Shown here: positions 824 through 40,938 of the stretch, piece after piece
How the letters are laid out: every line of letters starts with the position of its first letter
Position numbering within the stretch: position 1 is the first letter of the stretch
DNA from: Minisyncoccota bacterium
Lineage (GTDB): Bacteria > Patescibacteriota > Minisyncoccia > Phycocordibacterales > JAQTLZ01
Direction of reading: 5' to 3'
Assembly (NCBI GenBank): GCA_028711065.1
Contig: JAQTSY010000007.1
Coordinates: 1 to 50,872, forward strand
Length of the DNA: 50,872 bases
The notes under the pieces: model-generated
What the model was told of the DNA's origin: nothing
Database searches by the model: none
The model's input: only the letters and a program-made list of their open reading frames with translations
Made by a program: the position numbers and the translations under genes

Positions 824-852
824 TTGACTTTTTACCTAAAATATGCTAATAT
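824..852 (+). promoter_or_regulatory. sigma70 promoter of amidase gene
   Basis: TTGACT-17-TAATAT with TG extended -10. Confidence 0.7.
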
Positions 853-900
853 ACTAGTGGGCCTGTGGAGGGTCCTCGGGCAGGAGAAAGGAGGAGTCCT

Positions 901-1392
901 ATGCGGACCCTCTTCGTTCTACTGTCTTTTGTAAGCTCTGTTTCAATCGCTCACGGAGCGATGGCAGAGCGCAGGGAAACGTCCATGATCATCGTTCACC
1001 ATTCAGCAGGTTTGAATGGTAACGCGCAGATCTTTAGGGATTTCCATGTTCACCAGCGGGGCTGGGAAGACATCGGGTATCACTTTGTGATTTGCAACGG
1101 TCATGGTGGTGGCGACGGTGAAATTGAAACCGGCCGCGCCGAGAATCTCGTTGGGGCTCATGCGGGCAATCCGCATCCCAGCCGAAATCGATTCTCCGTG
1201 GGGATTTGTTTGGTTGGGGAGAATATATTTACTCCCGAACAACTCAAATCCCTGAAGGCAAAGCTCATCGAGCTTTGCCGGAAATACCATATCGTACCCT
1301 CCGCGCAGACCATTCAGAGGCATCATCCTGATTGCCCCGGAACAGGTCTCAACCTTGAGGCGATTATTGCCCAGGTTCAAAAGGAACTATAG
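901..1392 (+). CDS. N-acetylmuramoyl-L-alanine amidase (Amidase_2 / T7-lysozyme-like) with signal peptide
   Basis: IIVHHSAG, GWEDIGYHFVI, GAHA, SVGICLVG, HHPDCPG Zn-amidase motifs; AGGAGG 6 nt before ATG 901. Confidence 0.88.
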   Translation: MRTLFVLLSFVSSVSIAHGAMAERRETSMIIVHHSAGLNGNAQIFRDFHVHQRGWEDIGYHFVICNGHGGGDGEIETGRAENLVGAHAGNPHPSRNRFSVGICLVGENIFTPEQLKSLKAKLIELCRKYHIVPSAQTIQRHHPDCPGTGLNLEAIIAQVQKEL

Positions 1393-1412
1393 ATCTTATT
1401 GTCGAGTTTAAA

Positions 1413-1448
1413 ATAAAGTCGCCGATCACTTTGTGGTCGGCGATTTAT
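1413..1448. terminator. Terminator hairpin after amidase
   Basis: ATAAAGTCGCCGATCAC-TTT-GTGGTCGGCGATTTAT. Confidence 0.7.
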
Positions 1449-1509
1449 CATTATGTTAGAATGAGCTTTGGCTCGGGGGCGTGTAGCGACAGGGAGAGGG
1501 AGGTGCATC

Positions 1510-1737
1510 ATGGCGCGGTGGAACGCGGGCGACAGCGTTGAACAAGACAAACATGAAGCAGATCCAACATTGCTTCAGTCTGTGTTGGAGTACTTTTTAA
1601 ATTTTCCTCTTTCCTTTCTTTACAGGAGAGTGGAAGGTACAAGGTTCCAGGATCTCGGATTTCGGTTCATCGGACGCGTGTTTGAGTGGATCGATCGTCC
1701 CAATGAATTTTCTGGAGAAGCGGGAGGCAAGTCATGA
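1510..1737 (+). CDS. Hypothetical protein (75 aa), SD-led orphan
   Basis: TG-T-TAGAAT (1454-1462), GGAGGTG SD before ATG 1510; ATGA overlap with next ORF; no recognisable domain. Confidence 0.55.
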   Translation: MARWNAGDSVEQDKHEADPTLLQSVLEYFLNFPLSFLYRRVEGTRFQDLGFRFIGRVFEWIDRPNEFSGEAGGKS

Positions 1738-1916
1738 ATACACATGGTCTTCGCCGGCCGAGGAGATTCATAAGTAAGCGCTTTCTCAAGGCTTTGGGAC
1801 ATTTCTCCATCATCGATCTTGTCGGAAGCATGGCGATACCGTTTGCCATGTGCGCTGTTCTGTTCTGGATGTGTCTTTGCGACGTGATGAGATTTCTCTT
1901 TCGGAAATGGTGGTGA
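1734..1916 (+). CDS. Hypothetical small protein (60 aa), basic N-terminus plus hydrophobic segment
   Basis: GGAGG 6 nt before ATG; ATGA coupling; followed by terminator. Confidence 0.55.
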   Translation: MNTHGLRRPRRFISKRFLKALGHFSIIDLVGSMAIPFAMCAVLFWMCLCDVMRFLFRKWW

Positions 1917-1950
1917 GGTGTTTCTCGCTACACTTCCGAAAGTGTCGTTG

Positions 1951-1978
1951 GCGACTGGGTTTTGGCCCAGTCGTTTTT
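1951..1978 (+). terminator. Intrinsic terminator between small-ORF operon and tRNA-Leu 3' end
   Basis: GCGACTGGG-TTTTGG-CCCAGTCGT-TTTT. Confidence 0.7.
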
Positions 1979-1984
1979 CTTGTG

Positions 1985-2066
1985 TGCCGTGGGAGGGACT
2001 CGGACCCTCAACTCTTGCGAGATACGATTCTGAATCGTACGCGTATACCAGTTCCGCCACCACGGC
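1985..2066 (-). tRNA. tRNA-Leu(CAG), atypical (C55, A37, no encoded CCA)
   Basis: Minus strand GCCGTGG-TG-GCGGAACTGGTATACGC-G-TACGA-TTCAGAA-TCGTA-TCTCGCAAGAGTT-GAGGG-TCCGAGT-CCCTC-CCACGGC-A; all stems pair, long variable arm, A73; TG-T-TATTCT -10 at 2078-2086. Confidence 0.88.
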
Positions 2067-2203
2067 CAGATCTAGAAAGAATAACATGGGAGTGTCGATC
2101 GTTACACGACCAGTATCCCGATTGGATTTTTTCTTCGAAAAAATGCTCAATCGGGCTTCGACTCCTGACAGAAAGCGCCCCGCGCTTTCTTGATCGTCGA
2201 CCA

Positions 2204-2235
2204 AATGAAAAATGCCCTTCGGGGCATCTTTCATT
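2204..2235. terminator. Hairpin directly after tRNA-Ile 3' end
   Basis: AATGAAA-A-ATGCCC-TTCG-GGGCAT-C-TTTCATT. Confidence 0.65.
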
Positions 2236-2236
2236 A

Positions 2237-2312
2237 TGGTGCGCGATCCAGGAGTCGAACCTGGGACCCCATCAGTATCAGTGATGTGCTCTACCAGCTG
2301 AGCTAATCGCGC
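2237..2312 (-). tRNA. tRNA-Ile(GAT)
   Basis: Minus strand GCGCGATTAGCTCAGCTGGTAGAGCA-CATCA-CTGATAC-TGATG-GGGTCCCAGGTTCGACTCCTGGATCGCGC-ACCA; 76 nt, CCA encoded. Confidence 0.97.
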
Positions 2313-2485
2313 GCAAAGGAAACTATCTTGACCTTTTGAAACAGAACAGGAGAAATATAGCAGAAAATAAGCGTTTTGCCAAAATTTTTCTTTACTTCAA
2401 AATATTTGTCACATCGGTTTTCTTGGCAAGCTCGAGTGCAGGATTGAGCTGTTTTTTTGCCTAAACTCTGCTAGTATGGTCATAT

Positions 2486-3844
2486 ATGCAAATCGGGGGG
2501 TATTTTAGGGGTAAAAAGATAACAATCATGGGGCTCGGGCTCTTAGGCCGGGGTCTTGGCGATGTGCGGTTTTTGGCTGAAGAAGGGGCTGAACTTATCG
2601 TTACCGACCTTAAAACCAAGGAGCAACTCGCGGATTCTCTGAAAGCGCTCGAAGCCTTTCCAAACATCACCTACGTGCTCGGCGAGCATAGACTCAAGGA
2701 TTTTCAAGGCAGGGATATGGTGGTGAAAGCTGCGGGAGTTCCACTCGATTCTCCTTATATCGCTGAAGCGCGGAAAAACAATATTCCAATTGAAATGGAT
2801 GCGTCTCTTTTCGCCAAGCTCACCATCGGCGTTACCATCATCGGGATTACCGGCACGCGCGGAAAAACCACGACAACCTCACTCGTGTACGAGATTGCAA
2901 GAAGGCATTTTGACGGTACGAGTACGAAAGTGTTTCTTGGTGGCAATATTCGCGGTACAGCGACTCTGCCTCTTATTCGAGAAGTGAAAGCGGGGGACGT
3001 CATGGTACTTGAACTTGATTCATGGCAGCTTCAAGGATTTGGAGAAGCAAAAATCAGTCCGCATATTTCGATATTCACGAATTTTCTTGATGACCATCTC
3101 AATTATTACAAAGGCGACAAGGAATTATATTTTCAAGACAAAGCACAAATTTTTCTCAATCAAACAAAAGGAGATGTCTGCATCACGAGCGATGATTTGG
3201 CCATAGAAATAGTAAAAAGATTTGGAAAGGATATGAAAGGAGCGCTGGTGAAAGCGAAACCTTCGAAAATCCCGCTTGATTGGAAATTCCATCTTCGCGG
3301 AGAACATAATCGAGAAAATATTGCGCTTGCGATCGAAGCAGGGAAGGCGCTCGGCGCGACAATGGAAGAAATTCGCGAAGCGATTGAGCGATTTCGAGGA
3401 GTGCCGGGGCGACTCGAATTTTTGGTCAATTACAAAGGCGTTTATTTTTATAATGACACCTGCGCTACTACTCCTGATGCGACGCTCGCTGGATTGAAAA
3501 CTCTCGCTTTTCAACGAAACGTCGTCCTCATTATGGGAGGCGCGGACAAGGGTCTTAATATGGACAAACTTATTCACGCTCTTCCGGATTATACAAAAGA
3601 AGTCATTTTGCTTACTGGTACGAACACAACCGGGAGTGAAAGAATAAAAGATGTTGTTCTCAAATTTCCAAGTATCAAAGCAACTCTCGCCACAAGCCTC
3701 GAAGGAGCTCTCGGCCAAGCACTTCTCACAGCAGAGAAAGGAGACGTCGTGCTCTTTAGTCCCGCGTTCGCTTCTTTCGGAATGTTTAAGAATGAATACG
3801 ACAGAGGAGATAAGTTCAATGAAGCTGTTAAAAATCTGAAATAG
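2486..3844 (+). CDS. murD: UDP-N-acetylmuramoyl-L-alanine--D-glutamate ligase
   Basis: KKITIMGLGLLG, GITGTRGKTTT, LELDSWQL, DHLNYY, NDTCAT, LIMGGADKG, FSPAFASFGMFKNEYDRG. Confidence 0.93.
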   Translation: MQIGGYFRGKKITIMGLGLLGRGLGDVRFLAEEGAELIVTDLKTKEQLADSLKALEAFPNITYVLGEHRLKDFQGRDMVVKAAGVPLDSPYIAEARKNNIPIEMDASLFAKLTIGVTIIGITGTRGKTTTTSLVYEIARRHFDGTSTKVFLGGNIRGTATLPLIREVKAGDVMVLELDSWQLQGFGEAKISPHISIFTNFLDDHLNYYKGDKELYFQDKAQIFLNQTKGDVCITSDDLAIEIVKRFGKDMKGALVKAKPSKIPLDWKFHLRGEHNRENIALAIEAGKALGATMEEIREAIERFRGVPGRLEFLVNYKGVYFYNDTCATTPDATLAGLKTLAFQRNVVLIMGGADKGLNMDKLIHALPDYTKEVILLTGTNTTGSERIKDVVLKFPSIKATLATSLEGALGQALLTAEKGDVVLFSPAFASFGMFKNEYDRGDKFNEAVKNLK

Positions 3845-5155
3845 ATGAAGAAAATCAAAGCTGTCATTACTCCGCAGAACGCGAGAAAAATTCACTTTGC
3901 CGGCATCGGAGGCATTGGCATTTCTGCCGTTGCTCGGATGATGAAAGGCGAGGGAAAGATGGTAAGCGGTTCAGATAGAGACAGATCGAAAGTTACAGAT
4001 GAACTCAAAAAACTTGGAATAAAAATATCTATCGGACAGAAAAAATCTTCGATTCCGAAAGGGTGCGATCTTTTGGTGTATACCAATGCTCTCCCCAAAA
4101 ATCATCCCGAGCTTGTGGACGCTAAGAAAAGAAAAATAAAAGTCCTTTCATATCCGCAGACGCTCCATTTTATTTCAAAAGAAAAATATACGATTGCGAT
4201 TTCGGGCACTCACGGGAAAACCACGACGACCGCCATGGTCGCAAAAATTCTTATGGATGCGCATCTTGACCCGACTGTGATCGTCGGCTCGATTCTCAAA
4301 TCTACAAATTCCAATTTTGTTTCAGGCAAAAGCGTTTTTTTTCTTGTTGAAGCAGATGAATACAAACGGGCATTTTTAAATTTGGAACCGAAAATTTTGG
4401 CGATCAATAATCTTGATCTCGATCATACTGACTATTATAAAAATCTCGCCGATATTCAGAAAGCATTCCATACGCTCGCGAAAAAGATTCCGGAGGGCGG
4501 ATTTCTTATTTGTGATAAAGAGAATGCCCATCTGAAACCAGTGCTTAAATCCCTGAAATGCACAGTTATTCATTATCCTGATGTGTCGCTGTCTGATTGG
4601 AAGCTTAAGTTGCCCGGCGAGCATAACCGGCAGAATGCCAAAGTTGCCGCGACTGTCGCGGGAGTACTCGGCGTGCCGGAAGAAAATATCCGAAAATCGC
4701 TCGAAGAATTTGAGGGTACTTGGAGACGATTTGAGTTCAAAGGCGAGACGAAGAGCGGTGTGTTGGTCTACGATGACTATGCTCATAATCCAGAGAAAGT
4801 GCGTGCCGCACTCGCTGGGGCGCGGGAAGCATTTCCCAATAAGAAGATCTGGGCTGTTTTTCAGCCTCATCTTTATTCTCGGACGAAAAAGTTTCTGAAA
4901 GAATTTTCGGTTTCTTTTGGAAATGCGGATGAAGTTATTTTTGCTCCAATTTTTGCAGCGCGAGAAAAATTCGATAAGTCTATCACTTCAGAAATGCTTG
5001 CAAAAGCCGTAGTAAAAAAAGGCGGGAAGGCACACTATGCGGAAGCCTTTGAAAATATTGTGAAGTATCTCAAAAAGCAAACCAAAAAGGGAGACGTGGT
5101 GATGACGGTCGGAGCCGGCGATATTTATAAAGTAGGGGAGGAACTCCTTAAATAA
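3845..5155 (+). CDS. murC: UDP-N-acetylmuramate--L-alanine ligase
   Basis: IHFAGIGGIGISAVA, ISGTHGKTTTT, EADEY, DLDHTDYY, RRFE, DDYAHNP, FQPHLYSRT, GAGDI. Confidence 0.95.
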   Translation: MKKIKAVITPQNARKIHFAGIGGIGISAVARMMKGEGKMVSGSDRDRSKVTDELKKLGIKISIGQKKSSIPKGCDLLVYTNALPKNHPELVDAKKRKIKVLSYPQTLHFISKEKYTIAISGTHGKTTTTAMVAKILMDAHLDPTVIVGSILKSTNSNFVSGKSVFFLVEADEYKRAFLNLEPKILAINNLDLDHTDYYKNLADIQKAFHTLAKKIPEGGFLICDKENAHLKPVLKSLKCTVIHYPDVSLSDWKLKLPGEHNRQNAKVAATVAGVLGVPEENIRKSLEEFEGTWRRFEFKGETKSGVLVYDDYAHNPEKVRAALAGAREAFPNKKIWAVFQPHLYSRTKKFLKEFSVSFGNADEVIFAPIFAAREKFDKSITSEMLAKAVVKKGGKAHYAEAFENIVKYLKKQTKKGDVVMTVGAGDIYKVGEELLK

Positions 5156-5156
5156 T

Positions 5157-5852
5157 ATGGCAACTCTTTATGTCATCGGGACGCCAATAGGTAATCTTGG
5201 AGATATCACGCTCCGCGCACTGGAAGTCCTCAAATCAGTCGATTATGTGCTTTGTGAAGATACCCGCGTGACGGCGAAACTTTTGCATAAATACGAAATT
5301 TCAAAGCCGACGATAAGCTATCATTCGCATAGCGGTCTTTCAAAAGTTGATCATATTATTTCGCTTCTCAAGGACGGCAAAAATCTCGCTCTGGTTTCTG
5401 ACGCAGGAACTCCCGGAATTTCTGATCCAGGTTCGCTTCTTGTTTCGCAAGTGAAAGAAGCTTTAGGAGATGAAGTGAAAATCGTCGCCATTCCCGGACC
5501 CTCGGCGCTTGTCTCTGCTCTCTCCATTTCCGGTGCCCCATCATCTGATTTTCTTTTCCTTGGATTTCTCCCGCACAAAAAAGGGAGAGAGACCCTTTTC
5601 CGGGAGATTGCAAATTCAGAAAGAACTGTGGCTTTTTACGAATCGCCTCATCGAATTGAAAAAGCGCTTGCTTCGCTTCAGAAACATTTCACTGAAAAAA
5701 AACAAGAAGGGAGAAAAATCGCAGTCGCTCGTGAACTCACAAAAGTATTTGAAGAGTGCGTTTCAGGAACTGCGTCAGAGCTTATCGCTCATTTTCAAAA
5801 TCACCAGGATACGGTGCGTGGAGAATTTGTCGTCATTGTTTTTCCCAAATAG
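5157..5852 (+). CDS. rsmI: 16S rRNA (cytidine1402-2'-O)-methyltransferase
   Basis: LYVIGTPIGNLGDITLRAL, LCEDTR, SDAGTPGISDPG, FYESPHR, ARELTK, RGEFV. Confidence 0.96.
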   Translation: MATLYVIGTPIGNLGDITLRALEVLKSVDYVLCEDTRVTAKLLHKYEISKPTISYHSHSGLSKVDHIISLLKDGKNLALVSDAGTPGISDPGSLLVSQVKEALGDEVKIVAIPGPSALVSALSISGAPSSDFLFLGFLPHKKGRETLFREIANSERTVAFYESPHRIEKALASLQKHFTEKKQEGRKIAVARELTKVFEECVSGTASELIAHFQNHQDTVRGEFVVIVFPK

Positions 5853-5888
5853 TTCGCATTTTTGAGAATTATTATCTATAATACAAGT

Positions 5889-6116: not shown

Positions 6117-6186
6117 GCCTAGTTGAGCCTCTTGTTCATTCCTATCCCATGCGGGGTATTGCTTTTTGTTGTATACTATTTCCATT

Positions 6187-8127
6187 ATGGTGTCCTCTCA
6201 TACTGATCATAGCTCCTCTCCATCCCATGACTCCCATGGGCACCACGACTTTCTTAGAAAAAATGCATTCGATCCAGAGCGAGTGACCTATTTTGCCGAG
6301 ACTGATTCTCGCAATAAGAAAATAAAGTTTGGAATCAAAGCGAAAGACAGAACTCGCCATGTCTATGTTATTGGTAAGACGGGAATGGGGAAGTCCACCT
6401 GCCTTGAAAATATGGCCGTGCAAGATATTCAAAATGGCGAGGGTATGGCTTTTATTGATCCACACGGGAAAACTGCTGATCTTTTTCTTGAATATGTTCC
6501 GAAAGAGCGAATGAAGGACGTGCTGTATTTTGCGCCTTTCGATATGGAATATCCCGTGTCTTTCAATGTGATGGAAGACGTTGGTCCCGATAAACGCCAC
6601 TTGGTTTCAAACGGACTTATGAGCGCCTTCAAGAAAATTTGGGTGGATGCATGGAGCGCCCGAATGGAATACATTTTGAACAACATTCTTTTGGCACTTC
6701 TTGAATATCCGGATTCTACGCTTATTGGTGTAAACAGAATGCTTGCAGACAAGGATTATCGAAATGCAGTCGTTGCGAATGTGACCGACACTTCAGTGAA
6801 AGCATTTTGGCGGGATGAATTTGCGAAATATTCTGATAAATTCATGACCGAAGCGGGTGCGGCAATTCAGAACAAGATTGGACAATTCATTTCAAATCCG
6901 CTTGTGCGAAATATTATCGGCCAGCCGAAATCTACATTCGATCTCCGTAAGATGATGGATGAAAGAAAGATCATCATCATTAACCTCTCCAAAGGAAGAG
7001 TAGGGGAGTCAAACGCGAATCTCATCGGTTCGATGCTCATCACCAAAATTTATCTGGCTGCGATGAGCCGAGCGGATGTACCCGAGTCTGTTTTGAATAC
7101 ACTGCCCAATTTTTATCTCTATGTAGACGAATTTCAATCTTTTGCAAACGAATCTTTTGCCGATATTCTTTCCGAAGCTAGAAAATATAAACTGAACCTG
7201 ACAATGGCTCACCAGTACATCGAACAGATGTCGGAAGAAGTGCGTGCCGCAGTTTTCGGAAACGTAGGCAGTATGCTGGTGTTTCGGGTCGGAGCCTTTG
7301 ACGCTGAAGTTTTGGAGAAAGAATTTGCTCCGCAGTTTACCGCTGAAGATTTGGTGAATCTTGGGTTTGCTCAAATTTACATAAAACTTATGATCAACGG
7401 CGTAACCTCGTCGCCATTTTCCGCGACCACGTTGCCTCCGATAGCCAAGCCTCTTCGCTCACTTCGCGAAGAGATCATCGAATCATCGCGAAACACTTTC
7501 GCTCGTCCTCGAAGCGTAGTGGAGGAAGAAATACGCCGATGGCACGAGCCTGTGGGCAGACCGCAGCAAAAAGAAGTTGCCCCTCCAGAGCAAAGGCCTG
7601 TAACGACCTCTCCAAGACCTTCCCAGCCCCCTCTTCGTCCCGAATTTGCTTCCGCTTCTCGTCCTTCGCAACCTGCTCATGCCCCAGCTCCTAAAATGTC
7701 GGAAGCTCCTAAAGCTCCTCCTCGTCTTTCGGCTCCAGAGCACAATCCTACGATGGCAAAACAGGTGGAGAGGGAAACCGAGCTTCGCAAAGCAATGTCT
7801 CTCGCGTATTTAAAACCAGTGGCCCCAAAACCCCAGAAAAAGCCGAATGACCAGAATCTGAAAGATTTGCGCAATCTTTTGGCAACGCTTCAAAAAGAAA
7901 ATCCAACAGCTTCAAAAGAAGAAAAGAGAGTTGAGAATGTTCCTCCTCGCGCAGAGCAGAAACCCGCCTTTTCGGAAGCGACTCAACACAAGAGAGAGCC
8001 TGGAGAGATCCATTCTCATTCGACTCCGCCGGCTCCGTCAAAACCAGAGAAAAAAATTCCAAAAGAAGTTCCTGAGGATGTCCTTAGAAAACTCCTTCAT
8101 GTTAAACCGCCAGAGAATAATGCGTAA
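6187..8127 (+). CDS. VirD4/TraG/TraD-like coupling-protein ATPase with Pro-rich C-terminal tail
   Basis: RHVYVIGKTGMGKST Walker A, FIDPHG, YLYVDEFQSF Walker B, SEARKY, AHQYIEQ; start at ATG 6187 inferred. Confidence 0.85.
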   Translation: MVSSHTDHSSSPSHDSHGHHDFLRKNAFDPERVTYFAETDSRNKKIKFGIKAKDRTRHVYVIGKTGMGKSTCLENMAVQDIQNGEGMAFIDPHGKTADLFLEYVPKERMKDVLYFAPFDMEYPVSFNVMEDVGPDKRHLVSNGLMSAFKKIWVDAWSARMEYILNNILLALLEYPDSTLIGVNRMLADKDYRNAVVANVTDTSVKAFWRDEFAKYSDKFMTEAGAAIQNKIGQFISNPLVRNIIGQPKSTFDLRKMMDERKIIIINLSKGRVGESNANLIGSMLITKIYLAAMSRADVPESVLNTLPNFYLYVDEFQSFANESFADILSEARKYKLNLTMAHQYIEQMSEEVRAAVFGNVGSMLVFRVGAFDAEVLEKEFAPQFTAEDLVNLGFAQIYIKLMINGVTSSPFSATTLPPIAKPLRSLREEIIESSRNTFARPRSVVEEEIRRWHEPVGRPQQKEVAPPEQRPVTTSPRPSQPPLRPEFASASRPSQPAHAPAPKMSEAPKAPPRLSAPEHNPTMAKQVERETELRKAMSLAYLKPVAPKPQKKPNDQNLKDLRNLLATLQKENPTASKEEKRVENVPPRAEQKPAFSEATQHKREPGEIHSHSTPPAPSKPEKKIPKEVPEDVLRKLLHVKPPENNA

Positions 8128-8935
8128 GTTTTCTTCATGTACTATAGCCTTTCTTCTAACGCTTCTGTTTTCTCACAATTTCGTTTTTGCGCTTGCCGAT
8201 CTTCCGGTTTCCATTACAGAGATCATGTACGATTTGAAAGGGGGAAGCGATACGGGTCGGGAATGGGTGGAAATACAAAATAGGGGAGATGTTTCCATTT
8301 CGCTTTCTGGATTTAGGCTCCTTGATTCGACGAAAGAAGTTTTGGAGAATCACGAGCCTCTGAAGCCGATTCAAGGCGGGAGCACTATTCCCGCTCATGG
8401 ATACGCTGTCATCGCATCAGACTCAAAGAAGTTTTTAGCTGATAATCCGGGATTTTCGGGAATACTTTTTTCTTCCTCTTTTTCTCTTTCAAACACGGGA
8501 GAGATTTTGGTTTTAAAGGATAAAGTAGGGAATGAGATAGACAGAATTCTTTACATGCCTTCCTGGGGAGGAGCGGGGGATGGAAATTCTATTCAAAGTT
8601 TTTCGGACGGATGGAGAGCCGGCGCACCTTCTCCGGGTGGAGCTGAGAAAATCTTGCCGCCAACTCCCGCTCCTTTGGTAGTTGCTAAATCGATTACAAC
8701 GCCTAGACCTTTTTCCGTCGCTCCTTCTCCAGAAAAAAATACATCTGGTTCTCAGGTTTCAACACCTTCTATCGATTCATCTCTTGCGTCCCTACAAAGT
8801 TCTGGGGTTGTAGAAAGACCCAGTTCTTTGAAATGGATTTTGGGGTTTATCGGATTTCTCGTGCTTGTGATTGTCGCGTTTCTGTTTGTCTCGAAAAATA
8901 AAAATCCAATTGATGAAATAAAGATTATAGAGTAA
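8120..8935 (+). CDS. Lamin-tail-domain surface protein with C-terminal TM anchor
   Basis: ITEIMYD, EWVEIQN, SLSNTGEILVLKD..IDRILY, PSPG; signal peptide after ATG 8120; C-terminal TM. Confidence 0.82.
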   Translation: MRKFSSCTIAFLLTLLFSHNFVFALADLPVSITEIMYDLKGGSDTGREWVEIQNRGDVSISLSGFRLLDSTKEVLENHEPLKPIQGGSTIPAHGYAVIASDSKKFLADNPGFSGILFSSSFSLSNTGEILVLKDKVGNEIDRILYMPSWGGAGDGNSIQSFSDGWRAGAPSPGGAEKILPPTPAPLVVAKSITTPRPFSVAPSPEKNTSGSQVSTPSIDSSLASLQSSGVVERPSSLKWILGFIGFLVLVIVAFLFVSKNKNPIDEIKIIE

Positions 8936-9324: not shown

Positions 9325-9357
9325 AGAGGGACTCCGTTACGAAGTTTCCTCTTTTTG
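9324..9357. terminator. Probable bidirectional terminator between GtrA and HD gene
   Basis: AAAGAGGGA...TTTCCTCTTT imperfect hairpin between convergent genes. Confidence 0.55.
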
Positions 9358-9371: not shown

Positions 9372-10076
9372 TCATATTTCCAAGCCTTCCAGGCCGGTTT
9401 CTTCATATTGCCGTTTGATCGTTGCCAGGAACAGGCGTAAGAAGTCAAAATAAGGTTTCCCCAACAGCTTCGCAGTGTGAGTGCGTAACCCGAATTTTGC
9501 CCCGCTTTCCCATTCAAGCGAGAATGCAATATCGTCTCGGCAGGAGCGCGGCTGTCGAAACGTGCTCTCCGGGTTTCCACTCAAGTATTGCACTTCAACC
9601 GCTGGGATATGCGGGTAAAGCTGGCCAGAACGGATGATAAGGCAAGCTCCAATGTTAGCAAGCCTGTCCGCATCCTGGAGCACAATTTTGACCTCGCTGT
9701 CCTGTTCCCTGTTGGGGCCGCTGTGTTCCCGTACAGCTTGCAGGATTGTCCCAATTTCTATTTCAGTAAAATATCCTACCGGTAGAAGTCCCAACAGCCT
9801 CTTCAGGATACTCTCTGTTTCGACTCCTGCAAGACGGTCAATGCTGTGAATCATTGCGGCCACCCAAGCCATTTCTGTTACGCGGGTTTTCTTGCCCTGA
9901 ATCAGGATGACATATCCGGCAACTAGGACATCATGGTCGATACCATGCCCCTGGTTGCCTTTCCTCTGTCTTTCCATTTCCAGGTGAAAATCCTTTACTC
10001 CACTGAACAGTTTGGCGAATCTCTCCTGGTACAGGTGAAAAATTTGCCGCACATCTGTGCTTTTCAGTTTTCTCAA
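9372..10076 (-). CDS. HD-fold protein with HS in place of HD; SD-led orphan
   Basis: GHGIDH, AAMIHSIDR, AVREHS, LQDADRL spacing; TTG start with AGGAGG 6 nt upstream. Confidence 0.65.
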   Translation of the reverse strand: MRKLKSTDVRQIFHLYQERFAKLFSGVKDFHLEMERQRKGNQGHGIDHDVLVAGYVILIQGKKTRVTEMAWVAAMIHSIDRLAGVETESILKRLLGLLPVGYFTEIEIGTILQAVREHSGPNREQDSEVKIVLQDADRLANIGACLIIRSGQLYPHIPAVEVQYLSGNPESTFRQPRSCRDDIAFSLEWESGAKFGLRTHTAKLLGKPYFDFLRLFLATIKRQYEETGLEGLEI

Positions 10077-10124
10077 TCACCACCTCCTATCGTAGTTGGT
10101 TTATGACACGCTGACACTTTCTTT

Positions 10125-10153
10125 ACGATAGCAGTACTTTAGTAAAAAGTCAA
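10125..10153 (-). promoter_or_regulatory. sigma70 promoter of HD gene
   Basis: TTGACT-17-TATCGT with TG extension. Confidence 0.65.
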
Positions 10154-34449: not shown

Positions 34450-34458
34450 CACATTCCA

Positions 34459-36324
34459 ATGCGCTCGCTTTTGCAAGAAAGAAAGTTTCTCCTTCTTATG
34501 CCTTTTCTTGTGTCGGCGCTCCTCATTATAGCGGGAGGTTTTTATCTGTACGGAAATATGTTTTTGGCACGGGGTATTCTCGCCGTTATGCTTCTCTTGT
34601 TCTCGATACCGCTTTGGATAGATATCATTTCCCATCTCTTCAAAAAGAAATGGGGAGTTGATCTCATCGCTGGAGTTGCGCTTCTCTCCTCGCTTCTTTT
34701 CGGTGAATACTTAGCTGGTTCTGTGATTCTTCTTATGCTCTCTGGCGGAGAGGCTCTCGAGTTTTATGCAATGCGAAGAGCTCGCAAGGAACTTTCCGGA
34801 TTGCTTTCCAGAATGCCACAGGTGGTGCATCGCGAGGAGGGAGCGGTTTTGAAAGATGTCGCAATCGAGTCAGTTCTTGTTGGGGACGTGGTGATCGTAA
34901 AGACCAAAGAAATTATTCCTGTTGACGGCTCTGTTCTCGAAGGAATTTCTTCGGTAGACGAATCCGCTCTTACGGGAGAGAGCTTACCGGTTGAGAAAGT
35001 TTCTGGAAGCACGGTACTGTCTGGAACTCAAAATCAGGACGGACTTTTGAAAATAAAAGTTTTAGTTCCCGCATCGCAGAGTCGTTTTGAACAAATAAAA
35101 AAACTTTTAAGCGAAGCGGAGAATTTGCGCTCTCCGATCGTCAGGCTCGCTGATCGGGTAAGCATCTATTTTACGCTTGTGACATTTGTCCTGGGAATCT
35201 CCGCGTGGTTTCTTTCGGGCGATCCTATCCGCGTTCTCGCTGTCTTGGTTGTCGCCACGCCATGCCCGCTTCTTTTAGCCACTCCAATCGCTCTCATTTC
35301 CGGGATGAGCCGTTCTGCGAAGCGTGGAGTGATTGTAAAAAGCGGGAGCGCGATCGAGATGTTGTCGCGAGCTCGTTCTTTTGTTTTTGATAAGACGGGG
35401 ACTATTACGCTCGGTACTCCTCGGGTTTTGGATTACATCCCGTTTGGCGGTTTTTCAAAAATCGAATTGCTTCGGATCGGTGGAAGTCTCGAGCTTCTTT
35501 CAAGTCATATTCTCGCTCGCGCTATTGTTTCGTATCATCGTGAGAAAAAAGTGGAGATCGAGCGTCCAAAAGAATTTCACGAATTTCTCGGCGGAGGAGT
35601 TTCGGGAATATTGGACGGAAAGAAATATTTTTTCGGCGCGCTTTCCTTTCTTAAGAAAAATGGAGTTCCAATTTCAGAAGAAGTCTCAAAGAGTGATGCA
35701 AAAGCACGCGAAGATGACACCATCACGGCATTTCTTGGAGGAGAAAATGCGGTGCTCGGGATGTTCGTTTTTGCCGATGAGCTTCGTGGAGAATCCAGAT
35801 CTCTTTTTCAAGAGATACGAAAAGATGGTCTTGAACGTATCGTTATTTTGACTGGAGATAAATATCCCATTGCGGAGAGGGTTGCGAAAGAGGTTGGGGT
35901 GAAAGAATTTTGCGCGGAATGTTTGCCGGATGAAAAGCTGCGGAAAATTCAGGAGATCAAACTTTCGCATTCTCCGCTTGTGATGGTGGGGGATGGAATC
36001 AACGATGCGCCGGCACTTGCGGCGGCGGACGTTGGCATTGTCCTTAGTACTGAAAGCGCGACTATCTCAAGCGATTCGGCTGATATTGTGATTATGGGAG
36101 GGAAAATTGATCGCGTTCATGATGCGTTCGAAATTGCCAAGAAATCAATGCGAATTGCAAAACAGAGCATCGCTTTTGGAATGGGTTTGAGCATCGCGCT
36201 CATGATACTCGCTGCGCTTGGATACATCGAGCCGGTGCGAGGGGCGCTTTTTCAGGAGGTGATTGATGTTTTGGTTATTCTAAACGCGCTTCGGGCAAGT
36301 ATAGATGCTCCAATCAAAGGTTAA
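34459..36324 (+). CDS. Heavy-metal P1B-type ATPase (PCP motif)
   Basis: LTGES, ATPCPL, DKTGT, GDGIND, QEVID..NALR. Confidence 0.93.
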   Translation: MRSLLQERKFLLLMPFLVSALLIIAGGFYLYGNMFLARGILAVMLLLFSIPLWIDIISHLFKKKWGVDLIAGVALLSSLLFGEYLAGSVILLMLSGGEALEFYAMRRARKELSGLLSRMPQVVHREEGAVLKDVAIESVLVGDVVIVKTKEIIPVDGSVLEGISSVDESALTGESLPVEKVSGSTVLSGTQNQDGLLKIKVLVPASQSRFEQIKKLLSEAENLRSPIVRLADRVSIYFTLVTFVLGISAWFLSGDPIRVLAVLVVATPCPLLLATPIALISGMSRSAKRGVIVKSGSAIEMLSRARSFVFDKTGTITLGTPRVLDYIPFGGFSKIELLRIGGSLELLSSHILARAIVSYHREKKVEIERPKEFHEFLGGGVSGILDGKKYFFGALSFLKKNGVPISEEVSKSDAKAREDDTITAFLGGENAVLGMFVFADELRGESRSLFQEIRKDGLERIVILTGDKYPIAERVAKEVGVKEFCAECLPDEKLRKIQEIKLSHSPLVMVGDGINDAPALAAADVGIVLSTESATISSDSADIVIMGGKIDRVHDAFEIAKKSMRIAKQSIAFGMGLSIALMILAALGYIEPVRGALFQEVIDVLVILNALRASIDAPIKG

Positions 36325-36328
36325 TTGT

Positions 36329-36793
36329 ATGAAGAAGAAAAAAATTCTGACACTTTGCCTTTTTAGAAAAGACGAGAAAATTCTTCTAGGAATGAAGAAA
36401 CGGGGGTTTGGTGCCGGACGATGGAATGGGTTTGGAGGAAAAGTGGAAGTGGGGGAGACTATAGAAGAGGCTGCGTGCAGGGAGGTGCTCGAAGAAATCA
36501 GTGTTTCAGTCTCCGAAATAGAGAAATTCGCGACAATTGATTTTAGTTTCGAGGGAAAAGAAGAGGTTCTCGAAGTTCATTTTTTCACGGCGCTAAAATG
36601 GACAGGAGAGCCAGAAGAGAGCGAAGAAATGCGGCCAGAGTGGTTCGAAATTGATGAAATTCCATTCAAAAAAATGTGGGATGGCGACAAGTATTGGTAT
36701 CCGCTCTATTTGGCCGGGAAAAAATTCAAAGGCAAATTCCATTTTGACGAAAGGGATAAAGTGCTAGAATATGAACTCAATGAAGAAAAATAA
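36329..36793 (+). CDS. NUDIX hydrolase (MTH1/8-oxo-dGTPase-like)
   Basis: KKRGFGAGRWNGFGGKVE.GETIEEAACREVLEE, EEMRPEWF. Confidence 0.9.
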   Translation: MKKKKILTLCLFRKDEKILLGMKKRGFGAGRWNGFGGKVEVGETIEEAACREVLEEISVSVSEIEKFATIDFSFEGKEEVLEVHFFTALKWTGEPEESEEMRPEWFEIDEIPFKKMWDGDKYWYPLYLAGKKFKGKFHFDERDKVLEYELNEEK

Positions 36794-37259
36794 AAAACAA
36801 ATTGTGGTGGCGGTAAGCGGGGGGTTCGATCCTCTTCATGTTGGTCATGTGCGAATGTTTGAGGAAGCAAAAAAGCTAGGAGATAAGCTTGTGGTTATCC
36901 TCAACAACGACAATTGGCTCGCGAAAAAGAAAGGTGCTCCTTTTATGCCGGAAGCCGAACGAAAAGAAATTATAGAAGCGTTGCGAGCGGTGGATGAAGT
37001 CATTCTCACTCGCCACACGCCAGATGATCCGGACAGGAGCGTCACGCATATTTTAGCTGAGCTTAAGCCTGATATTTTTGCAAATGGCGGAGATCGTGAT
37101 CAAAGTGACGCCAACAAAGCCAGCTCATCTTTAAATCCAGAACAGGAGCTTTGCAAGCGTCTAGGAATCAAACTTGTGTTTAATGTTGGCCGAGGGGGCA
37201 AAGTCCAGTCAAGCTCTTGGCTCATTGCCAAAGCGGTAGAGAACAAGAAAAAAGACTGA
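36780..37259 (+). CDS. Cytidylyltransferase-like protein
   Basis: SGGFDPLHVGH, ERKEII..LRAVD, FANGGDR, QSSSWL. Confidence 0.88.
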   Translation: MKKNKKQIVVAVSGGFDPLHVGHVRMFEEAKKLGDKLVVILNNDNWLAKKKGAPFMPEAERKEIIEALRAVDEVILTRHTPDDPDRSVTHILAELKPDIFANGGDRDQSDANKASSSLNPEQELCKRLGIKLVFNVGRGGKVQSSSWLIAKAVENKKKD

Positions 37260-37290
37260 AGATTTTGGGGAATCTGGTATAATAGACTCT

Positions 37291-37695
37291 ATGATTCCTG
37301 CATATAAGAAGATTTTTAACTTTTTTGGCAAAGTCGAGGATCGTATTCGTTTTAATTTCAGCCGGCACCCAGTCCCTTATAGTTTAGTAGCCGGCGTATT
37401 CATTGTTCTTTTTTGGAAGGGGATTGAAGATACCGCAAGTCTTTTCCCAACGCTCACCGGCCCGTTTCTCATTCTTGTGAGTGTTCCGGTGCTTCTTCTG
37501 ACTGGTGTGTTTGTGTCTTTTTTCATTACCGATCGCGTCATTTTGTCAGGACTTAAAAAAGAAGAAAAAGTTGTTGCAGAGACGGAAGTTGAAGTAAAAC
37601 AGGAGGACATTCTCCTAAAAAAAGTAGTAGAGAGAATGGATCAAATTGATAAAGAAGTACGGCATTTAGACGAACATTTTCATAAACAAAAATAA
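37291..37695 (+). CDS. Hypothetical membrane protein with C-terminal coiled coil
   Basis: Two TMs then charged helix; TG-G-TATAAT 7 nt before ATG. Confidence 0.7.
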   Translation: MIPAYKKIFNFFGKVEDRIRFNFSRHPVPYSLVAGVFIVLFWKGIEDTASLFPTLTGPFLILVSVPVLLLTGVFVSFFITDRVILSGLKKEEKVVAETEVEVKQEDILLKKVVERMDQIDKEVRHLDEHFHKQK

Positions 37696-37696
37696 A

Positions 37697-38263
37697 ATGG
37701 AAAAACTATCTATATCAATCATATTGGGAACTGCCCGTGAAGGGCGAGACTCTGAAAAAGTAGCCCAATTTGTACTTCAAGAAGTGAAAAAGCGTTCTGA
37801 AATTGAGCCGGTATTTGTTGATATCAAAGATTACATTTCCGGAAAAACTTCTCGTCTTTCTGATGAACAGAGTGAGAAAAATAAAAAATGGCACGATATC
37901 GCAGAAAAGGCAGACGGATTTCTTTTTGTAATCCCAGAATACAACCACAGTTTCCCGGGAGAATTTAAAATGTTTATCGACACGCTTTTCAAGGAATATG
38001 CAAAAAAACCGGCGGCAATCTGCGGGGTTTCGAACGGGGCATTCGGAGGAACAAGAATGATCGATGCAGTGAGACCTGTATTAAGTTATCTTGGAATGAT
38101 TCCTGTTTCTCCCACTGTTCAGTTTATGAAAGTAAATGAACTTTTTGATACGAAAGGCGCCATCCTCGATGAGGCATATGGCAAAAAAGTTTCTGCAATG
38201 CTCGATGAACTTATCTGGTATACGAAAGCGATGAAAGAGGCGAGAAAAACAATAAAAAAATGA
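37697..38263 (+). CDS. NADPH-dependent FMN reductase
   Basis: ILGTAREGR, PEYNHSFPG, GVSNGAFGG. Confidence 0.9.
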   Translation: MEKLSISIILGTAREGRDSEKVAQFVLQEVKKRSEIEPVFVDIKDYISGKTSRLSDEQSEKNKKWHDIAEKADGFLFVIPEYNHSFPGEFKMFIDTLFKEYAKKPAAICGVSNGAFGGTRMIDAVRPVLSYLGMIPVSPTVQFMKVNELFDTKGAILDEAYGKKVSAMLDELIWYTKAMKEARKTIKK

Positions 38264-39156
38264 TATTCAAGAAAAAAATTAAAGCAGTAACACATAATGG
38301 ATTTTTTCATGCTGACGATGTTTTTTCGGCGGCACTTCTTCTCATTGTGCTCGGCGAAAATATTTCTTTCACTCGTACTCGTGATGAAAAGATAATTGCT
38401 GATGCGGACTACGCTTTTGATGTTGGGGGAGTGTATGATTCGACAAAAAATCGCTTTGATCACCATCAAACTGGAGGCGCAGGTAAAAGAGAGAATGGCA
38501 TTCCATACGCGGCCTTCGGACTTTTTTGGAAACAATGCGGAGAAAAAATGTGCGGGTCTCTGGGGGTTGCGGAAAAAATTGAAAAGAAATTAGTGATGCC
38601 GATCGATGCCAATGACGTTGGTGTTGATATTGTGAAGTCGATTTATCCCGAGATCTCCGCGTATACAGTGAACGATATCGTTTCCTCTTTCAGACCATCA
38701 TGGAAGGAAGATGACGATACTATGGACGCACGTTTTATGGAAGCAGTGAAGTGGGCAAAGGAAATTCTTTCTCGTGAAATTAAAAAAGCAAAAGATGCAG
38801 AGGAGGCGCAAATTTTTGTAGAGAAAGCGTATCAGCAAGCAAGCGACAAACGTCTCATTATTCTTTCCAGAAAATATCCATGGGGAGATACGCTTCGAAA
38901 GCATCCAGAACCGCTTTTTGTTGTCCAAGAAAATACTATTGATAATACTTGGCGCGCCTATGCGGTATCGAAAGATAAAAATACTTTTGAGAACAGGAAA
39001 AATTTCCCTGCAAACTGGGCTGGGAAAAGAGATGCGGAACTGGCTTCAATCACTGGAGTATCGGATGCAAAATTCTGCCACAACGGACTTTTTCTTGCCG
39101 TCGCAAAATCAAAAGAAGGAGCACTCAAACTTGCCGATATCGCTCTAAAAAGCTAG
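38260..39156 (+). CDS. MYG1 family exonuclease
   Basis: THNGFFHADD, RTRD, DVGG, RFDHHQ, IDAND, FCHNGLF. Confidence 0.93.
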   Translation: MIFKKKIKAVTHNGFFHADDVFSAALLLIVLGENISFTRTRDEKIIADADYAFDVGGVYDSTKNRFDHHQTGGAGKRENGIPYAAFGLFWKQCGEKMCGSLGVAEKIEKKLVMPIDANDVGVDIVKSIYPEISAYTVNDIVSSFRPSWKEDDDTMDARFMEAVKWAKEILSREIKKAKDAEEAQIFVEKAYQQASDKRLIILSRKYPWGDTLRKHPEPLFVVQENTIDNTWRAYAVSKDKNTFENRKNFPANWAGKRDAELASITGVSDAKFCHNGLFLAVAKSKEGALKLADIALKS

Positions 39157-39168
39157 GCTTGTAGCACT

Positions 39169-40275
39169 ATGGCCTTTATTGATGAGATAACTTTACATAT
39201 GAAAGCCGGAAAGGGCGGGGACGGCTACGTTGGCTGGCGCAATGAAAAAGGGCGCGAATTCGGCGGGCCTGCCGGAGGCAATGGCGGTCGCGGAGGCGAT
39301 GTGTATGTTCGGGGTGTTCGCGATTACACGATTCTTCTTAAATATCGAAATATAAAAGATTTTGCCGCGAAAAATGGACAGAATGGAATGGGTGGAAATG
39401 TGTGGGGGAAAAATGGTCAAGATTTGATTTTAGATGTACCGATTGGCTCGGTGCTTACCAATGAAACGACAGGAGAAAAATTTGAAGTTTTGAAAGAAGG
39501 CGAGCTTATTTTTCTTTTGAAGGGCGGAAAAGCAGGACTTGGAAATGCGGAATTTAAGGGTCCAAAGAATGTTGCACCGGAACAATTCACACTTGGGAAT
39601 GAAGGCGAGCGAGCGGATTTTTTCCTTGAGCTTCAGCTTGTCGTGGATCTCGGGTTTGTCGGATTTCCCAATGCTGGAAAATCTTCCCTTCTGAATGAGC
39701 TTACCCGAGCGCATGCAAAAGTCGCCGCGTATCAATTCACTACACTCGAGCCGAACTTAGGTGACTTGCATGGCTACATTCTTGCCGACATTCCCGGCCT
39801 TATTGAAGGCGCGTCAGAAGGAAAAGGGCTTGGATTCAAATTTTTACGACACGTGAATCGCACCAAAGCGATTTTGCATTTGGTTTCTCTTGAAAATGAA
39901 AATATTACAGAGGCGTATAAGACGATTCGAGGAGAACTCGCGACCTATAGCAAAGAACTTTCAGAAAAAAAGGAAATTTTACTTCTCACGAAGACTGATT
40001 TGGTAACACCGGCAGTTTTGAAAAAGAAAATCGCGGAAGCAAAGAAACTCAATAAACTCGTTTTCACACTTTCGATTATCGATGATAAATCAATAAAGGA
40101 ATTTAAAGATTCGCTCATAAAAATCCTGCGAGAACTTGAAAAAGAATCCGGCGAAAAGAAAAAATCGAAAAAGGGAAAAGATGAAGCTGTAGTATTTAAA
40201 ACAGACACAGCTCCAACCAAATTTCTCGAAGAACGTGCAGAAAGAGCAGCGAAGAAAATAAAAAGTAAAAAATAA
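39169..40275 (+). CDS. obgE: GTPase Obg
   Basis: Gly-rich Obg domain, GFPNAGKSS, YQFTTLEPNLG, DIPGLIEGA, TKTD. Confidence 0.96.
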   Translation: MAFIDEITLHMKAGKGGDGYVGWRNEKGREFGGPAGGNGGRGGDVYVRGVRDYTILLKYRNIKDFAAKNGQNGMGGNVWGKNGQDLILDVPIGSVLTNETTGEKFEVLKEGELIFLLKGGKAGLGNAEFKGPKNVAPEQFTLGNEGERADFFLELQLVVDLGFVGFPNAGKSSLLNELTRAHAKVAAYQFTTLEPNLGDLHGYILADIPGLIEGASEGKGLGFKFLRHVNRTKAILHLVSLENENITEAYKTIRGELATYSKELSEKKEILLLTKTDLVTPAVLKKKIAEAKKLNKLVFTLSIIDDKSIKEFKDSLIKILRELEKESGEKKKSKKGKDEAVVFKTDTAPTKFLEERAERAAKKIKSKK

Positions 40276-40298
40276 AGCGTGCCTAGCCGGCACGCTTT
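40274..40298. terminator. Bidirectional terminator
   Basis: AAAGCGTGCC-TAGCC-GGCACGCTTT between convergent genes. Confidence 0.75.
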
Positions 40299-40825
40299 TC
40301 CATCTCTCTTACTATCTGCTCTTCTACTTCTTTTCTTGCTTTCCTAATCGCCACGAGAGCTTGTTGGTACGAGTCTCTTGCTCGCACTTCGGCAATCCTT
40401 TCAATAATATCCGCCTCTCCCTCGTGGAAAAGGAATTGTCCTAAGTTATACTCTTTCCTTAGGGTATAGATGCGCGGACCTCCATATACAGCCACAGGCA
40501 TTACATCAATTATATGCCTGGTTTTGATAACTCGAAGCCAGGAGTGTGGACCTCCAGCTCTTTGGAATTTGCCGTCTTTCCAGACAGGGAAGCCAAATCG
40601 CCCGTCTCTTTTTTCCAGTTCATCAGAGGCAAATAAATCAGCGTGTAAATGGCACTGTCCATCTACCGCCCATGTTTTTGCTTCTGGGTGTCTTGCTAGC
40701 ATTTCCGTCGCCATTTTGACGAAGTAAAATGCTCCCATCGTCTCAACGGAGAAATGATTTCCAAACTGACTGACAGCTTTTGCGTAGGTAAAGTACTCGT
40801 CTACCACTCGCTCGATCGTCGTCAT
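40283..40825 (-). CDS. Orphan protein with possible transglutaminase/papain-like Cys-His-Asp triad
   Basis: GQCHLHA..HSWL..IIDV; start MTTIE at 40825 with GGGGAGG SD; promoter TTGACA-16-TACTAT (40867-40894). Confidence 0.6.
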   Translation of the reverse strand: MTTIERVVDEYFTYAKAVSQFGNHFSVETMGAFYFVKMATEMLARHPEAKTWAVDGQCHLHADLFASDELEKRDGRFGFPVWKDGKFQRAGGPHSWLRVIKTRHIIDVMPVAVYGGPRIYTLRKEYNLGQFLFHEGEADIIERIAEVRARDSYQQALVAIRKARKEVEEQIVREMEKRAG

Positions 40826-40938
40826 GACTCTTTTCCTCCCCTGTGGTTGGTTGAAAACTGTGCGTAATAGTAAACAGAAATATGTTTTTGTCAAATTAAA
40901 TGCAAAATTGAAATAATACGCTATAATGGCTGAATTGT

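Follow-up and report, generated by a model that had tools for sequence, protein, structure and literature searches.

Genomes dominated by leaderless genes are familiar from the leaderless groups of GeneMarkS-2 and from Mycobacterium and Deinococcus. Among small mobile units, the cassettes of integrons are promoterless, end in an attC site and need IntI, and the phage morons described by Hendrix and Juhala are autonomous units of promoter, gene and terminator that sit between conserved phage genes. Acquired genes ameliorate over time toward the composition of their host, as set out by Lawrence and Ochman. Leaderless genomes are treated by Cortes et al. 2013, which is cited in PMC12641261. In the Bacteroidia the sequence that pairs with the Shine-Dalgarno (SD) box, the anti-SD, is sequestered, and few genes are SD-led (Jha et al. 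2021, PMC7797042; PMC10798248). According to Tsurumaki et al. (2022, RNA 28:1041, PMC9297842), about half of the Parcubacteria have lost the anti-SD altogether. Full-text literature searches returned no paper on SD-led accessory units in those members of the Candidate Phyla Radiation (CPR) that lack the anti-SD. Here we analyze contig JAQTSY010000007.1 of the Minisyncoccota bacterium assembly GCA_028711065.1 over its whole length of 50,872 nucleotides (nt; hereafter the window), in which five genes are preceded by a canonical SD box in a genome whose 16S rRNA tail has no anti-SD. Our preferred reading, with moderate confidence, is that these five are imported flexible genes which brought along their own expression signals, and that these signals then decay, the SD box being a relic.

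The window opens with the end of the 16S rRNA gene, whose last 132 nt are the only part of that gene present in the assembly. After helix 45 the tail reads GGAAUAUUUCAAUUUGAA, and the gene ends in ...GUGGAAUAUUUCAAUUU where the Escherichia coli equivalent, GGAUCACCUCCUUA, would stand. The tail thus lacks CCUCC, as the original prediction had stated, and neither a second 16S 3' end nor an anti-SD-bearing copy was found in the 974-kb assembly. An identical tail is present in G002, a sister genome of the same genus that we compared in full (core proteins about 92% identical; each genome about 1 Mb), and tails of the GGAWUWWUUCAA type without CCUCC occur in about 30 further genomes from more than 20 families, including all readable 16S sequences of the order. 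A relocated conserved CCUCC was not found anywhere in the 16S of the anti-SD-less relatives. The relatives found carry names such as Paceibacterota, Nomurabacteria, Kaiserbacteria and Liptonbacteria, which fits a member of the Paceibacteria within the CPR, and the missing anti-SD is a real but already published trait. The sequence that replaces it is conserved across the order (UUCAAAUUGAA / UUCAAUUUGAA) and is a small palindrome (window 120-137; L001-L015, L087-L092, L169-L178), which looks more like the fixation of a new tail sequence than like drift; the tails of G401 and G410 have an intermediate form, GGAUCAAUUAAACUA. We considered an alternative anti-SD, but words that could pair with the new tail (TGAAAT, GAAATA and the like) are enriched at most 3-4-fold, and this before internal operon genes rather than first genes, which is unconvincing. 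The prfB gene for release factor 2 is a single in-frame open reading frame (ORF) with a short N-terminus and without the CUUUGA site of SD-dependent frameshifting (C24:64826-65677 in the genome analyzed; L216, 763-1644, minus strand). Its start lies about 10 nt past a tRNA gene, and a promoter of its own is not visible there.

All five SD boxes of the original prediction, which had placed GGAGG or AGGAGG 6-9 nt before five starts, can be read in the window. On the plus strand GGAGG lies at 890-894, 1499-1503 and 1723-1727, each time with an ATG (901, 1510 and 1734) 6 nt downstream; on the minus strand it lies at 10087-10083, 6 nt before the TTG at 10076, and at 40839-40835, 9 nt before the ATG at 40825. 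The genes in question encode an amidase, two overlapping small ORFs, an HD-domain hydrolase and an orphan protein, here called the 40825 gene. Their G+C content of 47-52% stands against 35-46% in their neighbors, and their score for native codon usage (coding score) is 0.04-0.24 compared with 0.3-0.5. The predicted distances of 48, 47, 48 and 41 nt from the -10 box to the start agree with a hand count; three units have a full promoter and the 1510 unit has an extended -10, with all promoters and terminators in this study being predicted matches to a consensus. The further claim that each unit ends at a hairpin is borne out by a terminator scan for three units (1950-1975, 9345-9331 and 40298-40274), but the hairpin behind the amidase lacks a T run.

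These genes are part of a second gene population that extends through the genome. The window is contig C4 of a 31-contig assembly rated 99% complete (G000), and the genome-wide figures rest on our own crude gene caller and start choices, which gave 961 genes. Native genes have no SD; the words enriched just upstream of their starts resemble a -10 box (TGCTA, TATAAT, ATAAT), and in about 110 genes the start codon follows an extended -10 (TGNTANNNT) at a distance of 6-10 nt (6-7 nt in the general native layout), which suggests that native mRNAs are probably leaderless. Against this background the 3' ends of GGAGG and AGGAG peak sharply at positions -4 to -10, before about 6% of all starts, with 33 and 44 occurrences versus about one per position elsewhere, and a strong SD precedes about 7% of the starts but only 2% of internal in-frame start codons. 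The SD-led genes have a G+C content of 48.6% (51.5% on the large contigs, where the statistics exclude small SD-rich contigs that could be mobile elements or contaminants of the bin) compared with 43.5% for the others (P about 1e-13). At third codon positions the values are 52% and 41%, and the native coding score is 0.21 versus 0.35, that is, codon usage is foreign. Seen from the side of composition, 54% of the genes with at least 48% G+C are SD-led and 10% have a leaderless-type -10, whereas below 46% G+C the SD-led share is 5%, which is near chance. Core and orphan genes differ clearly in SD frequency and leader length across the genome, as had been claimed from the window.

The 61 G+C-rich SD-led genes on the large contigs group into 55 units, and 41 of these consist of a single gene, so that "scattered orphan cassettes" is an accurate description. 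Besides many orphans, the SD-led genes of the genome include accessory enzymes, among them dapA, pyrF, a phosphoribosyltransferase, a fatty-acid desaturase, a protein with metallo-beta-lactamase fold, a TehB-type methyltransferase and an aminotransferase. No core translation gene is found among the Pfam-checked, native-looking SD-led candidates, which are accessory metabolic genes; the sole match to a core gene is a class II aminoacyl-tRNA synthetase, whose weak GAGGT is not kept in G002, where GAGGGT stands instead. Patchiness sets the two populations apart as well. For the large contigs, a homologue in G002 exists for 38% of the SD-led genes but for 77-84% of the others (P 1e-13).

Contig C1 of G002 runs collinear with the window (75-91% identity at the DNA level), and the comparison reveals empty, filled and swapped sites. 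The HD unit is an insertion of about 870 bp between two convergent conserved genes; the corresponding site in G002 is empty, with about 60 nt, and no repeat or target duplication is visible when the filled and the empty site are compared. The slot of the 40825 gene is occupied in G002 by 1.5 kb of different sequence, which includes a gene for 122 amino acids (aa) behind AGGAGG. The amidase slot of G002 keeps the promoter and the final stretch of the leader (TTGACTTTT..ATGCTA..GGGCAGGAGAAAGG), with GGGGG in the place of the SD, but the gene that follows (C1 ~950-1453, L096) encodes an unrelated SLT-domain lytic transglycosylase instead of an Amidase_2 protein; both enzymes act on peptidoglycan. 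This in-place swap has its breakpoint close to or at the start codon, and the terminator hairpin in the same position differs between the two genomes. The two small ORFs at 1510-1916 are syntenic in G002, with 77% DNA identity and a conserved promoter. Conversely, some spacers of 15-33 nt in the window correspond to SD-led units in G002.

Beyond the genus, we counted full-length homologues in the 401 genomes of the order. The HD gene has homologues in 16 of them (30-44% identity) and the amidase in seven, and the 40825 gene is confined to one, the 400 other genomes providing four weak partial matches and no full-length homologue. In the species-genome collection the HD family is found only in the CPR, with the exception of one record of a metagenome-assembled genome labelled Gammaproteobacteria; the nearest relatives of the amidase are from the CPR, followed by Planctomycetes and others at about 40%. 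In other anti-SD-less genomes many HD and amidase homologues have the arrangement TTGACA-17-TGnTAnnnT, a leader of 30-60 nt and an SD, and others are leaderless. The HD family occurs both in genomes with CCUCC, namely G402, G407 (Falkowbacteria) and G416 (Komeilibacteria), and in genomes without it, so that the gene pool is common to both sides of the anti-SD boundary.

The HD family also offers a gradient. Among 43 homologues, the G+C excess over the flanking sequence is +11.8 for copies with a strong SD, +7.4 with a weak SD, +4.8 with none and +1.6 for leaderless copies (Spearman 0.61, P 1e-5), and copies with different states of the start region are intermingled on the tree. Most simply, the gradient can be read as a time series, whose direction we infer: a G+C-rich, SD-led gene arrives, ameliorates, loses its SD by decay and acquires a -10 box beside the start. 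Erosion of the box is seen directly in vertical pairs, from GGAGG to GGGGG in the amidase leader and at C16:116351, and from AGGAG to GGGAG at C17:790. Eroded boxes tend toward runs of G (GGGGG, GGGGGG, GGGGGGGGGG), as in the amidase leader of G002, at C16:116351, in the HD homologues L034 and L053 and at C1:116715 of G002, which amounts to A-to-G drift inside an A+T-rich genome. One may speculate that G+C-biased gene conversion in often-recombining genes would fit both the G-run boxes and the G+C excess.

As to the origin of the genes, the nearest named relatives of the SD-led dapA are from Liptonbacteria (67%), followed by NC10 and Acidobacteria (57-61%), which points to an ultimate origin in G+C-rich, SD-using bacteria. 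The original prediction had offered imports from an SD-using donor or a phage. The first part is the best supported, by composition, codon usage, absence from G002 and patchiness. We rejected a phage origin for the three window genes concerned: no relative of the HD family was found on viral contigs, the 40825 gene has one weak partial viral match, and the endolysin-type relatives of the amidase are distant (about 36%).

Taken together, we envisage a population of horizontally circulating accessory genes that would arrive as self-contained units. Each unit combines a full sigma-70-type promoter, with a -35 and an extended -10 box, and an A/C-rich leader of about 30-60 nt that lacks structure; a canonical SD follows, then one or two ORFs and finally a hairpin. 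The short spacers between conserved genes are where the units sit. Because the host belongs to the Paceibacteria, with leaderless native initiation and the 16S anti-SD lost, the SD appears as a signal imported from sources in which it works. The ultimate sources may be G+C-richer SD-using bacteria, followed by a pool common to CPR with and without the anti-SD. In the recipient the SD could not pair with the 16S and would presumably have no function in the cell, translation probably proceeding by way of the open leader and the start codon. With residence time, a unit would either be lost or be ameliorated, the SD eroding (GGAGG to GGGGG) and a -10 box beside the start taking over.

Several observations weigh against this reading of the boxes as relics. 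Of 11 G000-G002 pairs whose leaders have diverged, eight keep the SD 5-mer, compared with a retention of 34% for control 5-mers from these leaders (P 0.01), and the 1510 unit keeps its GGAGG in G002 while the rest of its leader has diverged with indels, a case of genuine vertical retention. SD spacing peaks just as sharply here as it does in SD-using bacteria. Whatever the G+C of the host, SD-led HD copies exceed it, also in hosts that bear the anti-SD (r 0.59), a pattern not predicted by a simple model with one donor. No composition-matched donor was found for the HD, amidase and 40825 genes, whose nearest relatives are CPR members with 41-72% identity, and two anti-SD-bearing CPR genomes have a strong SD on just 15% and 6.5% of their genes. 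These shares are too low for the SD-rich reservoir that we had sought in anti-SD-bearing CPR, and we dropped this candidate.

An alternative explanation, possible but in our judgment not probable, is that the SD is kept by selection and functions without an anti-SD. It might be read by another segment of the rRNA, a protein or a small RNA, or act on mRNA stability or the opening of the start site, and the SD-led genes would then form a lasting, separately regulated class. Along with the retained boxes, it would account for HD and amidase homologues in other anti-SD-less families that are SD-led again at 30-50% protein identity, and for the recurrence of the leader length. The exact 48-nt gap is found in the HD homologues L036, L064 and L068, one of them in a genome with an anti-SD, despite leaders that are unrelated in sequence, and also in the G002 homologue of C17:103467 (hand count on the upstream sequence). 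In G000, 48 nt is the mode of the distance between -10 and start (six of 55 promoter-SD pairs, P about 0.004 for any bin), but in G002 it is not (one of 47), and the near-constant leader length originally proposed was rejected as a rule for whole genomes.

Other observations speak against a functional SD. As described above, the 16S has no relocated CCUCC, prfB has no SD-dependent frameshift, and the Pfam-checked native-looking candidates include no core translation gene, the box of the aminoacyl-tRNA synthetase being weak. In the HD family the strength of the SD declines along with G+C amelioration, and the clearly vertical pairs show A-to-G erosion of the box. Even the retained 5-mers can be read differently, because most of the diverged pairs are only 35-72% identical, compared with 92% for core proteins, and may be separate imports whose SD was selected elsewhere. 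We therefore consider it doubtful that GGAGG boxes, and perhaps the 48-nt distance, are selectively kept before flexible genes across the anti-SD-less Paceibacteria, with the ribosome or an accessory factor recognizing SD-like leaders without pairing. If this were the case, the cell would have two separately controllable translation channels, one for leaderless core genes and one for SD-led accessory genes.

A second alternative sees the units as cargo that a dedicated system, in the manner of integron cassettes or phage morons, inserts as standardized expression-ready genes into intergenic slots by specific recombination. We regard this as improbable, even though the units have much of the expected appearance: they are single-gene and fit exactly into the interval that separates a stop codon from the promoter that comes next, and the sister genomes have different cargo in the same slot, both behind the one promoter-leader of the amidase or SLT gene and at the 40825 slot. 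A YdjM-like gene, one of the G002 units that occupy short spacers of the window, has its promoter and leader conserved in a copy with 66% identity that G000 carries at another locus. Across these two genomes of about 1 Mb we count 29 + 44 clean single-site insertions and 103 replacements of 0.3-5 kb; the gene flux between them is unusually fine-grained and spread over the whole chromosome. However, the sequence of the window units reveals no standard ends, repeats, target duplication or recombinase, their ends share no common repeat or attC-like element, and no integrase or recombinase is present among the Pfam-scanned genes of the first ~9 kb of the window, a scan that leaves the genes adjoining the 40825 unit outside. 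That no HD relatives were found on viral contigs and that the phage homologues of the amidase are distant also speak against a phage vehicle. When the units are considered as promoterless cassettes, the HD and 40825 genes have predicted promoters of their own, and the amidase slot, with one promoter-leader before two genes, is a single case.

The inserted genes themselves point to a more general process. Between 18% and 23% of them are SD-led, which is 3-4 times the genome average, but the others have low G+C and are of native type, many of them leaderless, and this native type makes up about half or more of the inserted genes. Since native-type leaderless genes show the same behavior in insertion and deletion, a dedicated insertion mechanism is not shown, and the large native share argues for a general gene flux, most simply by homologous recombination in the conserved flanks. 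We thus presume that the SD-led units, too, were inserted by ordinary recombination. From the standardized cassette class with an unknown mechanism that the original prediction proposed, the single-gene, self-contained units between core genes and the swapped slots stand as a description.

Contamination or a chimeric assembly, or mRNAs meant for the ribosomes of a host cell as the original prediction had speculated, can be dismissed as highly improbable and already contradicted for the window: several small contigs (C3, C12, C18, C19, C22, C29 and C31) are indeed SD-rich, foreign and absent from G002, and no positive evidence for host-directed messages was found; the window units lie inside a 50.9-kb contig whose start is the anti-SD-less 16S tail and whose sequence to either side of every unit is collinear with G002, the 61 SD-led genes counted above are on large native contigs, the units carry the clade's own consensus promoter, and the products are ordinary enzymes of the cytoplasm or envelope without an enrichment in export signals (N-terminal hydrophobic segments in 17% versus 30%).

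The similarities among the promoters and leaders of the window are largely those of the whole class. The amidase and HD promoters had been said to align closely, and they share a 12-mer, TTGACTTTTTAC, that is unique to these two promoters in the genome; yet TTGACTTTTT occurs in 10 copies and TGCTA is the general extended -10, so the likeness is no more than consensus and the motif similarity is not significant. We also rejected the idea that this promoter homology marks the end of a mobile element, as a strong consensus promoter suffices and a near-identical promoter is found at L165, an amidase homologue of another family. The AACCAAC motif reported before the SD in the HD and 40825 leaders is present, and such A/C-rich words are general: in the 75 SD leaders of the genome AACC, CAACC and ACCAAC are enriched 5-40-fold 5-25 nt upstream of the SD. 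A C at position -1 is typical of the SD-led class. A structured leader or riboswitch was rejected, because the four leaders fold no better than shuffled sequences (z -1.5 to +0.3) and the Rfam matches are only the rRNA end and two tRNAs.

With respect to function, the products in the window (Table 1) are in part recognizable. The HD gene scored no match to the Pfam HD model, but the residues H44, H48, H77, D80, H118, D135 and D137 are invariant in the alignment of its homologues, and a profile of 15 homologues matches the solved HD hydrolases 2pq7, 2qgs, 3gw7 and 5dqv at 1e-9 to 1e-14 (best 1.5e-14). Among 1.84 billion representative proteins, the 40825 protein has relatives in just two other clusters. 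It matches no Pfam family, and its predicted model, with a mean local confidence (pLDDT) of 80, has no fold match in the PDB at E <= 0.001. The idea of secreted effectors was rejected because, as given above, N-terminal hydrophobic segments are rarer in SD-led products. Public gene calls are shorter than ours and skip the SD-preceded start, giving 143 instead of 163 aa for the amidase (20 codons) and 226 instead of 234 aa for the HD protein (8 codons). In the amidase, the shorter call loses the hydrophobic segment at the N-terminus as well. Training on an SD-less genome probably causes gene finders to mis-start the SD-led class.

Table 1. Coordinates of the 16S rRNA end, the four SD-led units and a native comparison gene in the window.
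Feature	Position	Strand	Remarks
16S rRNA gene, 3' end	1-132	+	small-subunit model positions 1388-1533 (Rfam alignment); tail GGAAUAUUUCAAUUU, without CCUCC
PLDc_N small membrane protein (native comparison gene)	388-762	+	TGCTATACT ends 6 nt before ATG, leaderless type; G+C 42.7%
Amidase promoter and leader	824-900	+	TTGACT 824-829, 17-nt spacer, extended -10 TGCTAATAT 844-852, 48-nt leader, AGGAGG 889-894
N-acetylmuramoyl-L-alanine amidase (Amidase_2)	901-1392	+	N-terminal hydrophobic segment; Pfam 4e-15; G+C 51.6%, coding score 0.04
Amidase hairpin	1418-1444	+	GTCGCCGATCAC-TTT-GTGGTCGGCGAT, without T run; different hairpin at same place in G002
Two-ORF promoter and leader	1454-1509	+	extended -10 TGTTAGAAT 1454-1462, 47-nt leader, GGAGG 1499-1503
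Two overlapping small ORFs	1510-1916	+	75 aa (1510-1737) and 60 aa (1734-1916), ATGA overlap; without family match
Two-ORF hairpin, terminator-like	1950-1975	+	terminator scan; adjoins two minus-strand tRNA genes
HD hairpin, weak, terminator-like	9331-9345	-	terminator scan
HD-domain hydrolase, YedJ/YpgQ type	9372-10076	-	234 aa, TTG start; G+C 49.6%, coding score 0.06
HD promoter and leader	10077-10153	-	TTGACT 10153-10148, 17-nt spacer, TGCTATCGT (-10 ends 10125), 48-nt leader with AACCAACTAC 10101-10092
40825 terminator hairpin, strong	40274-40298	-	10 pairs; overlaps stop codon of 40825 gene
Orphan protein (40825 gene)	40283-40825	-	180 aa; invariant C58, H59, D63, D74, H94, D107; G+C 46.6%
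40825 promoter and leader	40826-40894	-	TTGACA 40894-40889, 16-nt spacer, TACTAT ending 40867, 41-nt leader with CAACCAACCAC

Other parts of the window and the assembly deserve mention. At 6166-8935 the window encodes a VirD4/TraG-like coupling ATPase (T4SS-DNA_transf, TrwB) followed by a lamin-tail-domain protein, both of which are conserved in G002. A giant ORF at 43507-50871, open at the contig end and longer than 2,454 aa, lies where the G+C content of the window is highest (49-51%), with a strong positive GC skew; G002 has no counterpart at the collinear position. The small contigs C3, C12, C18, C19, C22, C26, C29 and C31 are foreign in composition, with a tetranucleotide correlation of r 0.56-0.83 compared with 0.97 for native chunks. 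None of them has homologues in G002, and all except C26, which has zero SD-led genes, are SD-rich (r 0.65-0.83). These contigs encode a phage portal, an SbcCD-like nuclease, subunits of type I restriction-modification and a 3D-domain protein, and they may be mobile elements of the organism or contaminants of the bin.

The loss of the anti-SD in part of the CPR has been published, but its consequences for gene expression have not. The genome described here amounts to a natural experiment, in that native genes start without leaders and an SD is carried only by the genes that appear to be imported. Across a very large uncultured clade, the SD box could thus serve as a simple marker, readable from the sequence, of recent gene gain. 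It also becomes testable whether a ribosome without an anti-SD still profits from an SD or whether imported genes make do with open leaders until their conversion to leaderless genes. A functional SD would overturn the assumption that SD action needs pairing with the 16S tail.

Among the systems named at the outset, the anti-SD-lacking Parcubacteria have the same 16S tail without CCUCC; the accessible part of PMC9297842 reports the missing motif only, and the leaderless native layout with a residual class of SD-led accessory genes is what we find here. Like phage morons, the units are single extra genes with their own predicted promoter and terminator, deviant composition, and presence or absence at the same slot; however, they are flanked by chromosomal core genes (mur ligases, a glycosyltransferase operon and others) and not by a prophage. 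With integron cassettes they have in common that they are small, mostly single-gene mobile units swapped at defined slots, but they carry promoters, have no common end repeat and are without an integrase in the first ~9 kb scanned. Their atypical G+C and codon usage, their patchiness and the gradient in the HD family resemble those of ameliorating acquired genes. Here, however, the initiation signal changes too, from SD-led to leaderless, and the recipient is without the rRNA partner of the imported signal. As in Mycobacterium and Deinococcus, a large share of first genes has a -10 box 6-7 nt before the start; those genomes keep the anti-SD and use the SD on leadered native genes, whereas the leadered SD class here looks foreign. 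The nearest functional parallel is with the Bacteroidia, in which most genes also have no SD and a small set keeps it. In the Bacteroidia, however, CCUCC is kept and the retained SDs are on conserved genes such as rpsU and prfB, whereas in the genome studied here CCUCC is gone and the SD-led genes are accessory.

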